Source: a virus
Lineage: Duplodnaviria; Heunggongvirae; Uroviricota; Caudoviricetes
Direction: 5' to 3' (one strand)
IMG/VR virus record: IMGVR_UViG_2602041579_000011
Location: 1-11,880 of that record
DNA: 11,880 nt
Shown here: one piece after another, positions 10,247-10,921 of the stretch
Numbering within the stretch: the first letter of the stretch is position 1
Layout: each line of letters opens with the position of its first letter
Notes under the pieces: model-generated
Told to the model about the DNA's origin: nothing
What the model saw: the letters and a program-made list of their open reading frames with translations, nothing else
The model's database searches: none
Translations under genes and position numbers: made by a program

Positions 10247-10921
10247 ATGAAAAACACTATCAGCGAACGTATTCGGAATCGTCGAAAAGACGTTGGATTA
10301 ACCCAACAGCAGGTTGCGAAAGCAATCGGCATATCTCGTGTATCCGTAACAAAATGGGAAAATGGCTCTTCAAAACCTGACGGTGAGAATTTGTATCTAC
10401 TGTCAAAATTGCTTTCCAAATCTCCTGAATGGATTCTTTATGGAAAGGACGGTCACGATAAAGCCGATGATCTGCGTCTGAATCAGTACCCTTACATTAG
10501 TGACAACATCGCCCGGTTGCCCGTTTTAACGTGGGAACAGGCTGGTTATTGGGATATGAGTTGTCCAGTAACCGAGATTCCTGGTATTAAGAATTGGGTT
10601 GATGTCATGACAAAAACCGCTGAAAACTCTTTTTTATTGCATGTTGAGGGAGATGCGATGACAAACTCTAACGGCCTCCCAACCATCCCCGACGGATCTA
10701 CCGTGCTGATCACACCATGCTCAAGTAACATTAGAGAACTGGTGGGAAAAATAATCTTAATCCAATTGGAAGGAACGCCAAACGTAACACTAAAAAAAGT
10801 TGCGATTGACGGACCAAACATCTATCTGTTGTCACTGAATCCGCTTTACAAACCCATCGAACTGAATGGTGGTTACACCATTAAAGGTAAAGTTTCACAA
10901 ATACATCAATACTTAGACTGA
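10247..10921 (+). CDS. cI-like prophage repressor: N-terminal XRE-type HTH plus C-terminal S24 (LexA-like) peptidase domain, with the catalytic Ser position apparently Ala
   Basis: From ATG 10247: MKNTISERIRNRRKDVGLTQQQVAKAIGISRVSVTKWENG... (HTH), linker QAGYW (lambda cI cleavage region is QAGMF), then HVEGDAMT where lambda cI has EVEGNSMT, and later VTLKKV. Starts at 10148 or 10205 would overlap the cro start and operators. Confidence 0.8.
   Translation: MKNTISERIRNRRKDVGLTQQQVAKAIGISRVSVTKWENGSSKPDGENLYLLSKLLSKSPEWILYGKDGHDKADDLRLNQYPYISDNIARLPVLTWEQAGYWDMSCPVTEIPGIKNWVDVMTKTAENSFLLHVEGDAMTNSNGLPTIPDGSTVLITPCSSNIRELVGKIILIQLEGTPNVTLKKVAIDGPNIYLLSLNPLYKPIELNGGYTIKGKVSQIHQYLD

Follow-up and report, generated by a model that had tools for sequence, protein, structure and literature searches.

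A natural alanine at the S24 nucleophile position of a widespread lambdoid prophage repressor

A repressor gene in a prophage early region

The DNA analysed here (the window) is a stretch of 11,880 nucleotides, positions 1 to 11,880 of IMG/VR record IMGVR_UViG_2602041579_000011, and represents the early region of a lambdoid prophage. Its immunity repressor gene lies between the recombination/int arm and the replication/Q/lysis arm, a position for which the full prophage context was taken from related loci (L001 joined with L003, L018 and L017). The minus strand carries a holin gene, four tRNA genes, Q, RusA, a DUF968/HNH gene, an FkbM-type methyltransferase gene and hok/sok, and further along DUF551 and Ren-like genes, a replication initiator, YdaT and a Cro-like gene; on the plus strand, the repressor is followed by ydfA, ydfB and ydfC. 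A sok antitoxin RNA (5373-5544, minus strand; Rfam, 108 bits) points to the presence of a type I toxin-antitoxin locus, hok/sok, in this region.

This part of the prophage is highly mosaic, with no more than 76% of the window covered in one place by any complete E. coli genome. Four tandem tRNA genes (Gly-TCC, Thr-TGT, Lys-TTT and Met-CAT; 793-1102, minus strand) sit between Q and the holin gene, where related prophages have Arg/Arg/Ile tRNAs, and the FkbM-family methyltransferase gene (4317-5183, minus strand) replaces a segment that holds QueH, DUF4406, DUF1627 and other cargo in related prophages.

The repressor coding sequence (10247..10921, plus strand; ATG at 10247, TGA at 10919-10921) specifies 224 amino acids. 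Its N-terminal domain is a Cro/C1-type DNA-binding domain (HTH_3, residues 9-63, 10271..10435, plus strand; Pfam, E=3.5e-17), for which the N-terminal domain of P22 C2 is the nearest solved relative (E=1.4e-12). The C-terminal domain has the Peptidase_S24 fold (PF00717, residues 92-216, 10520..10894, plus strand; Pfam, E=9.5e-17); the match spans profile positions 1-115 of 116, and Pfam, a family profile and Foldseek all place the protein in the S24 fold and sequence family across the whole domain. Architecture and fold are the same as in the two-domain (HTH plus S24) repressors lambda cI, P22 C2 and 434 cI.

RefSeq lists a 238-amino-acid form of the repressor that begins at ATG 10205. The 14 additional codons (10205-10246) enclose an exact operator (10233-10246), which translates as 'NIGY' and is kept even in a relative of 46% identity. 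Because this operator abuts ATG 10247, and because more distant homologues begin at the equivalent Met, we favour 10247 over 10205 as the start, and it is probably the true one. The repressor mRNA is possibly leaderless at 10247, by analogy with what was shown for PaaR2 of CP-933P.

Operators and the immunity region

A 14-mer of the form GTAAC-N4-GTTAC occurs exactly three times in the window (10185, 10233 and 10996), against 0.2 expected. Two copies lie between the repressor and cro: GTAACAATAGTTAC on the cro side (10185..10198) and GTAACATTGGTTAC, which abuts ATG 10247 (10233..10246), both of them exact and kept in relatives. By eye only, we found a possible weak middle operator between them, TCAACCATAGCAAC (10208..10221), which has 6 of the 10 specified bases and a centre 23 and 25 bp from those of its neighbours. 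Together, 10185, 10208 and 10233 recall the tripartite OR of lambda, with a weak middle site that would depend on cooperative binding. The third exact copy, GTAACTCTTGTTAC (10996..11009), lies 3' of the repressor gene just past a TTGACT hexamer and is a putative OL/PL of the ydfA-ydfC leftward operon, a promoter assignment that we propose. The first gene of that operon, ydfA (DUF1391; 11194..11349, plus strand), is presumably silenced by the repressor. The operators are conserved at the same relative positions in six related loci, down to 66% protein identity.

Divergent to the repressor stand a Cro-like regulator of 71 amino acids (9940..10155, minus strand; phrog_409, P22_Cro) and YdaT, a CII-like regulator of 141 amino acids (9518..9943, minus strand; phrog_163, E=1.9e-44; PMC9986795). 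The same layout of repressor, divergent Cro-like protein and YdaT is found in CP-933P of E. coli O157:H7 (PaaR2/YdaS/YdaT; PMC8630535, PMC9986795), where a YdaT-activated, PRE-like promoter lies at the cro/ydaT junction. The likeness extends to a YdaT-type inverted repeat at this junction in the window, TTGATTTTCATGAATCAT (9933..9950; site definition from PMC9986795), which has one mismatch to the published YdaT site and a count that on its own is not above chance. TTGATTTTCATGAATCAT spans the cro stop and the ydaT start.

After the repressor stop, a hairpin followed by a T-run (10925..10949, plus strand) folds as an intrinsic terminator (-16 kcal/mol, z = -4.4). A consensus promoter scan of 9900-11300 returned no sigma-70 site, and the same scan also missed this terminator; PR and PRM could not be placed by eye. 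The repressor has the features of the CI type, namely a divergent cro and operators both between the two genes and at the putative leftward promoter. From this architecture, it would be expected to silence the lytic promoters and to confer superinfection immunity. Conserved operators, the divergent cro-ydaT pair and the terminator mark a working immunity region, which on these grounds looks functional.

Alanine in the S24 nucleophile column

Residues 11-217 of the repressor align with lambda cI (3bdn; E=4.4e-14), the best solved relative in a phmmer search of the PDB. The alignment pairs 'veGdAmt' with 'veGnSmt', 'eQAGyw' with 'vQAGmf' and 'tlKKv' with 'tfKKl' (repressor and lambda cI, respectively). 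Codon 137 is GCG (10655..10657, plus strand), which places Ala where lambda cI (S149), LexA (S119) and UmuD (S60) have their nucleophilic Ser. Two other elements of the cleavage chemistry are retained in the alignments: Ala99-Gly100 (10541..10546, plus strand), which corresponds to the bond cleaved in lambda cI (Ala111-Gly112), and Lys183 (10793..10795, plus strand), which corresponds to the Lys that acts as general base in lambda cI (K192) and LexA (K156). BLASTP against E. coli LexA and UmuD set Ala137 opposite LexA Ser119 and UmuD Ser60, and Lys183 opposite Lys156 and Lys97. The sequence-only reading had aligned the protein to lambda cI by eye, and HMMER and BLASTP place QAGYW, Lys183 and Ala137 just as it had claimed.

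A profile of 24 family members matches lambda cI at E=2.7e-27 and also recovers LexA C-terminal domains and UmuD'. In the underlying alignment G135, M138 and T139 are nearly invariant, as are Q98, A99 and G100, and K183 and K184 are invariant; column 137 is Ser in all relatives at or below 52% identity but one. Ala137 falls in the nucleophile column of the profile alignment, the check that the earlier reading had proposed, and no alignment puts another Ser there. Ser142 and Thr139 were considered as substitute nucleophiles and rejected, as no alignment supports either. In a larger alignment of 147 full-length relatives, drawn from a 50% representative library, 127 have Ser at the nucleophile column, so Ala137 is a real departure. 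Most of the other 20 also lack the Ala-Gly site, a different and more degenerate situation than that of the Ala137 repressor.

An AF2 model of the repressor has a pLDDT of 77, falling below 50 over the loop that holds Ala137 (136-145). Its top Foldseek matches are lambda cI and LexA, and the fold matches include the mutant structures 1jhh, 1jhc and 6a2s. By sequence alignment, then, Ala137 occupies the S24 nucleophile position of the repressor: the G-[DEN]-S-M motif of active S24 peptidases lacks its Ser, and both the Lys and the Ala-Gly bond are present.

Prevalence of the Ala and Ser alleles

We found the repressor gene in 702 of 5,426 complete E. coli genomes (~13%, or about one in eight), of which we infer ~686 to be Ala and 16 Ser. 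A 63-nt probe centred on codon 137 and carrying GCG is matched exactly in 681 of the 683 complete genomes that match it, and the one non-exact genome examined differs elsewhere (His132Arg); the same probe carrying TCG has no exact match in any of the 5,426. The remaining 19 genomes comprise 8 of O55:H7 type (Ser, TCG; 25 nucleotide differences from the window), 8 of ST130/STEC type (Ser, TCA) and a small C8-type group (Ala, GCG). Among IMG/VR copies, 79 of 80 have GCG, 77 of them with an intact open reading frame. In a collection of 15 billion proteins, the exact window protein is present on at least 1,000 contigs, the Ala form also occurs in E. albertii, and over two protein clusters taken together the Ala members add up to at least 2,066 contigs and the Ser members to ~1,079; both forms being common there, they co-circulate.

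These counts bear directly on the suggestion in the sequence-only reading that Ala might be a strain-specific mutation. With the same GCG 63-nt stretch in 681 of the 5,426 complete E. coli genomes, that suggestion fails, and Ala is no singleton among orthologues either, since alleles of 89% and 70% identity have it as well. On prevalence we likewise rejected a sequencing error. That the residue is an error or a mutation private to this strain is vanishingly improbable, given the identical codon in 681 complete genomes and 79 IMG/VR contigs and the protein on at least 1,000 contigs.

The two Ser-bearing sisters, WP_000104592 (O55:H7 CB9615 type) and WP_028985609 (ST130/STEC type), are 94% and 87% identical to the window protein in amino acids, differing at 13 and 30 residues over the 238-amino-acid RefSeq form. 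Both adjoin the same cro-ydaT neighbours, and the operators, compared for the ST130/STEC type and its relatives, are identical to those in the window. With TCG or TCA at codon 137, these sisters are presumably SOS-cleavable.

Deposited phages offered no counterpart. Megablast of the gene against 50,697 phage records returned no match, and tblastn returned no repressor more than 43% identical, so no characterised phage can serve as reference. For a gene found in 13% of complete E. coli genomes this is suggestive but weak evidence, because phage collections lack the Ser-type sisters too. A scan of genome contigs with one genome per species gave just two irrelevant HTH matches.

Recurrence and purifying selection

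Within the clade, column 137 is Ser or Ala and nothing else. Ala is encoded by GCG in an E. coli allele of 89% identity (P0002) and by GCA in a Salmonella allele of 70% identity (P0005), and Ser by TCA and TCG in alleles of 88% (P0003) and 66% (P0006) identity. On a neighbour-joining tree of the clade, rooted with Ser-bearing relatives, Fitch parsimony requires at least three changes in this column (3 in 94 of 100 bootstraps, 4 in the other 6). Equal homoplasy is seen in only 12 of 218 columns, just three of which are two-state. Intragenic recombination could lower the number of changes; the Salmonella Ala lineage is independent in any case, because it uses a different codon and dS is saturated.

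The C-terminal domain is under strong purifying selection after loss of the Ser and is not decaying. Between lineages, its dN/dS is 0.05-0.07 at a dS of ~0.7, and between two Ala lineages it is 0.05. Across 77 Ala alleles, 14 sites in the domain segregate synonymously and 4 nonsynonymously (pN/pS 0.08), and the Ala-Gly, motif and Lys positions are not among them. A change to Ala is what one would expect if selection acted against cleavage but spared the fold.

Residue 30 (codon 10334-10336), a Ser or Thr immediately N-terminal to the invariant RVSVTKWE of the HTH domain, covaries perfectly with residue 137 in the eight closest alleles (S30 with A137, T30 with S137). The pairing breaks in the Salmonella allele and could reflect shared ancestry, intragenic recombination or coupling.

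A repressor predicted to resist RecA-stimulated cleavage

The reading that we prefer, with a probability of roughly 0.7, is that this protein is a natural Ind- repressor of the CI type, whose S24 domain would serve as an oligomerisation scaffold and which RecA could not induce through repressor cleavage. Lambda cI S149A and LexA S119A, which lose the Ser of the Ser-Lys dyad, are non-cleavable, and by analogy a repressor with Ala137 should not self-cleave. The N-terminal HTH domain would bind the 14-bp GTAAC-N4-GTTAC operators by cro and upstream of the ydfA operon, silencing the rightward cro-ydaT-replication operon as well as the leftward one, which comprises ydfA-ydfC in the window, followed in related prophages by dicB-exo-xis-int. 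As Ala137 replaces the serine nucleophile, RecA-stimulated cleavage at Ala99-Gly100 would not occur. The S24 domain would thus be kept for dimerisation and cooperative operator binding and not for catalysis, DNA damage would be unable to induce the prophage by repressor cleavage, and the switch would flip only spontaneously, through the Cro/YdaT circuit or via an outside factor. Given the frequency of the allele, the usual link between DNA damage and induction is probably broken in many prophages.

Comparison with lambda cI shows both what is shared and what is not. Like lambda cI, the repressor has the Ala-Gly site and the Lys, and its gene is flanked by operators, faces a divergent cro and is followed by a terminator; unlike it, the repressor has Ala for the Ser nucleophile, so that by sequence the defining chemistry of self-cleavage is missing. 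The window further differs from lambda in having a YdaT protein in the CII position and in being at most 43% identical in its repressor to that of any deposited phage. The same substitution at the same position is found in lambda cI S149A, LexA S119A and M. tuberculosis LexA S160A. These engineered mutants fold normally and repress, and the solved structures 1jhh, 1jhc and 6a2s match the model; they are laboratory constructs, whereas the window allele is natural, widespread and under purifying selection. PaaR2 of CP-933P, which is unresponsive to mitomycin C and belongs to a bistable switch, lacks a peptidase motif entirely and heads a toxin-antitoxin operon, whereas the window repressor keeps a complete S24 domain.

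One observation does not sit easily with the preferred reading. None of the Ala lineages, not even that of Salmonella at 70% identity, departs from the Ala-Gly site or the catalytic Lys, for which a pure scaffold would have no obvious need. Their invariance would be explained if the repressor were still cleaved, through another nucleophile or in trans at Ala99-Gly100 by another S24 peptidase (a co-resident Ser-type repressor, LexA or UmuD), and intermolecular cleavage is indeed known for LexA and cI fragments and for UmuD. No alignment offers a Ser at the nucleophile column, however, the known examples of trans cleavage work poorly on full-length repressors, and in a monolysogen there would be no active enzyme with the right specificity. 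We therefore regard continued cleavage as highly improbable, and we retain the Ind- reading.

Non-proteolytic CI repressors are a recognised class, represented by Gifsy, 186 and N15 (PMC3121763, PMC10432266), and a survey of Stx-phage CI proteins found the Ser conserved in clades I-VII. Our literature searches found no description of a natural Ser-to-Ala prophage repressor or of the protein accession, and nothing on repressor alleles in a 2026 preprint on SOS-mediated induction. Nothing that we found in the literature thus describes a full-length S24 repressor with a single catalytic defect, Ser to Ala, that is natural, recurrent and widespread.

Prophages with a CI-type repressor labelled 'LexA family' or 'S24 peptidase' are usually taken to be inducible by DNA-damaging antibiotics, yet the substitution known from the laboratory as 'non-cleavable' occurs naturally in ~13% of complete E. 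coli genomes, among them the ST131 and O111 strains that we examined. This matters for predicting which prophages, and which of their cargo (dicB, hok/sok), respond to quinolones or mitomycin C, and it cautions annotation pipelines and predictors of prophage activity against deducing autoproteolysis from the domain alone. Ser and Ala sisters with shared operators, where these were checked, form a natural matched pair for the study of selection on prophage inducibility, one that bears on whether the Ala form reflects inactivation at the level of the host or a strategy at the level of the phage. Since Ser-bearing sisters with matching operators exist in sequenced strains, the phenotype of the Ala repressor is easy to test.

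Search for an alternative SOS route

If the repressor is non-cleavable by design, an antirepressor made after DNA damage or on another cue might inactivate it. Repressors of this kind are established: the CI proteins of Gifsy (GfoR/GtgR), 186 (CI/Tum) and N15 (CB/AntC) go uncleaved in the SOS response, as is predicted here, and answer to LexA-controlled antirepressors that sometimes act in trans (PMC3121763, PMC10432266). The antirepressor gene would sit, as in those systems, elsewhere in the prophage or in a co-resident one. The E. coli hosts of the module are usually polylysogens, with a median of 4 places per genome that match parts of the window; a trans-acting factor from another prophage is a candidate inducer.

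In the window and in one related prophage, no such module came to light. No antirepressor is annotated in one complete related prophage of ~49 kb (L001 with L003), and the main open reading frames of the window have no PHROG or Pfam match to an antirepressor family. Scans of the window, one of them relaxed, found no LexA box, and the 40-kb early region of L001 is without a perfect CTGT-N8-ACAG; as a positive control, the relaxed scan recovered the sulA box in L017.

The one site that could speak for a LexA-controlled gene is a LexA-box-like sequence, AACTGGATATTTTTACAGTA, which matches the consensus at 16 of 20 positions in three related prophages (L001:11767-11786, L018:9283-9302 and L017:10773-10792), each time overlapping a DNA methyltransferase gene at its 5' end. 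We did not accept it as a functional LexA box: it reads CTGG and not CTGT, it lies inside the methyltransferase coding sequence, and it is absent from the window.

The known antirepressor-controlled repressors also differ in build, being altogether without an S24 domain. Those of Gifsy are ~136 amino acids long and have no C-terminal peptidase domain (PMC3121763), whereas the window repressor keeps the whole of it; and the phages Gifsy, 186 and N15 carry a LexA-controlled antirepressor, whereas we found no such module in the window or in L001/L003. We consider control by an antirepressor unlikely. As candidates for what would induce an Ind- prophage of this type, we list spontaneous Cro/YdaT switching, an antirepressor in trans, trans cleavage at Ala-Gly and the RecA-independent routes cited in PMC10432266.

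Mobility and decay of Ala-type prophages

The prophages that carry the gene are lambdoid mosaics, integrated at two or more different attachment sites. Ala-type modules lie at ompW in an O17 strain and in ST131, with different replication genes, and at yccA in O111, with an identical protein in a degraded prophage; Ser-type modules lie at rspB (O55:H7) and at yccA (ST130). Identical or near-identical Ala alleles are thus found at ompW and yccA beside different integrases and replication modules. This recent spread of one Ala allele over lineages and attachment sites implies that the element is still mobile, either because it can be induced in some way or because the module travels by recombination alone.

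Some copies are decaying. The O111 copy has IS1203 in its exonuclease gene and a frameshifted integrase, and the copy in strain C8 has a frameshifted ydaT. One Ala-type prophage of ~49 kb, read end to end, looks complete, and dicB-exo-xis-int follow the leftward operon genes in related prophages. The sequence-only reading had raised the idea of a domesticated prophage. This fits some copies, such as the O111 one with its IS insertion and frameshifted integrase; others look complete. The degraded copies do show that some Ala prophages are being grounded.

Ala may recur through host selection to survive DNA damage, or as a phage strategy of SOS-blind lysogeny. On the first account, Ser to Ala is a recurrent inactivation favoured because lysogens with a prophage that SOS cannot induce survive DNA damage, the repressor being kept only to silence toxic genes (dicB, hok, kil-type) while the element turns cryptic. 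This is an evolutionary reading and overlaps with the Ind- explanation. It fits the independent Ser/Ala changes on the tree, the degraded O111 and C8 copies, the toxic cargo (hok/sok in the window, dicB downstream in relatives) and the intact repressor frame in 77 of the 79 Ala-type IMG/VR copies. Purely vertical grounding does not, however, predict near-identical Ala alleles in phylogenetically distant hosts, at two attachment sites and beside different replication modules; at least one Ala-type prophage looks complete, and Ser-type alleles persist alongside at high frequency. We regard host-driven grounding as a credible account that probably does not explain the Ala form.

On the second account, codon 137 would switch recurrently, and maybe reversibly, between Ser, which leaves the phage SOS-inducible, and Ala, which makes it blind to SOS, and the Ala form would belong to phages that are still infectious and respond to an SOS-independent cue. 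Ala would then be no dead end, and the phages would spread between E. coli lineages and attachment sites, cued perhaps by Cro/YdaT bistability, by a trans factor of another prophage or by trans cleavage at Ala-Gly. We put this forward tentatively, as a rather doubtful extension of the Ind- reading.

Among the complete E. coli genomes, one copy of the immunity gene lies on a plasmid, and at least one genome has two copies; it would be unusual for a cell to harbour two homoimmune modules.
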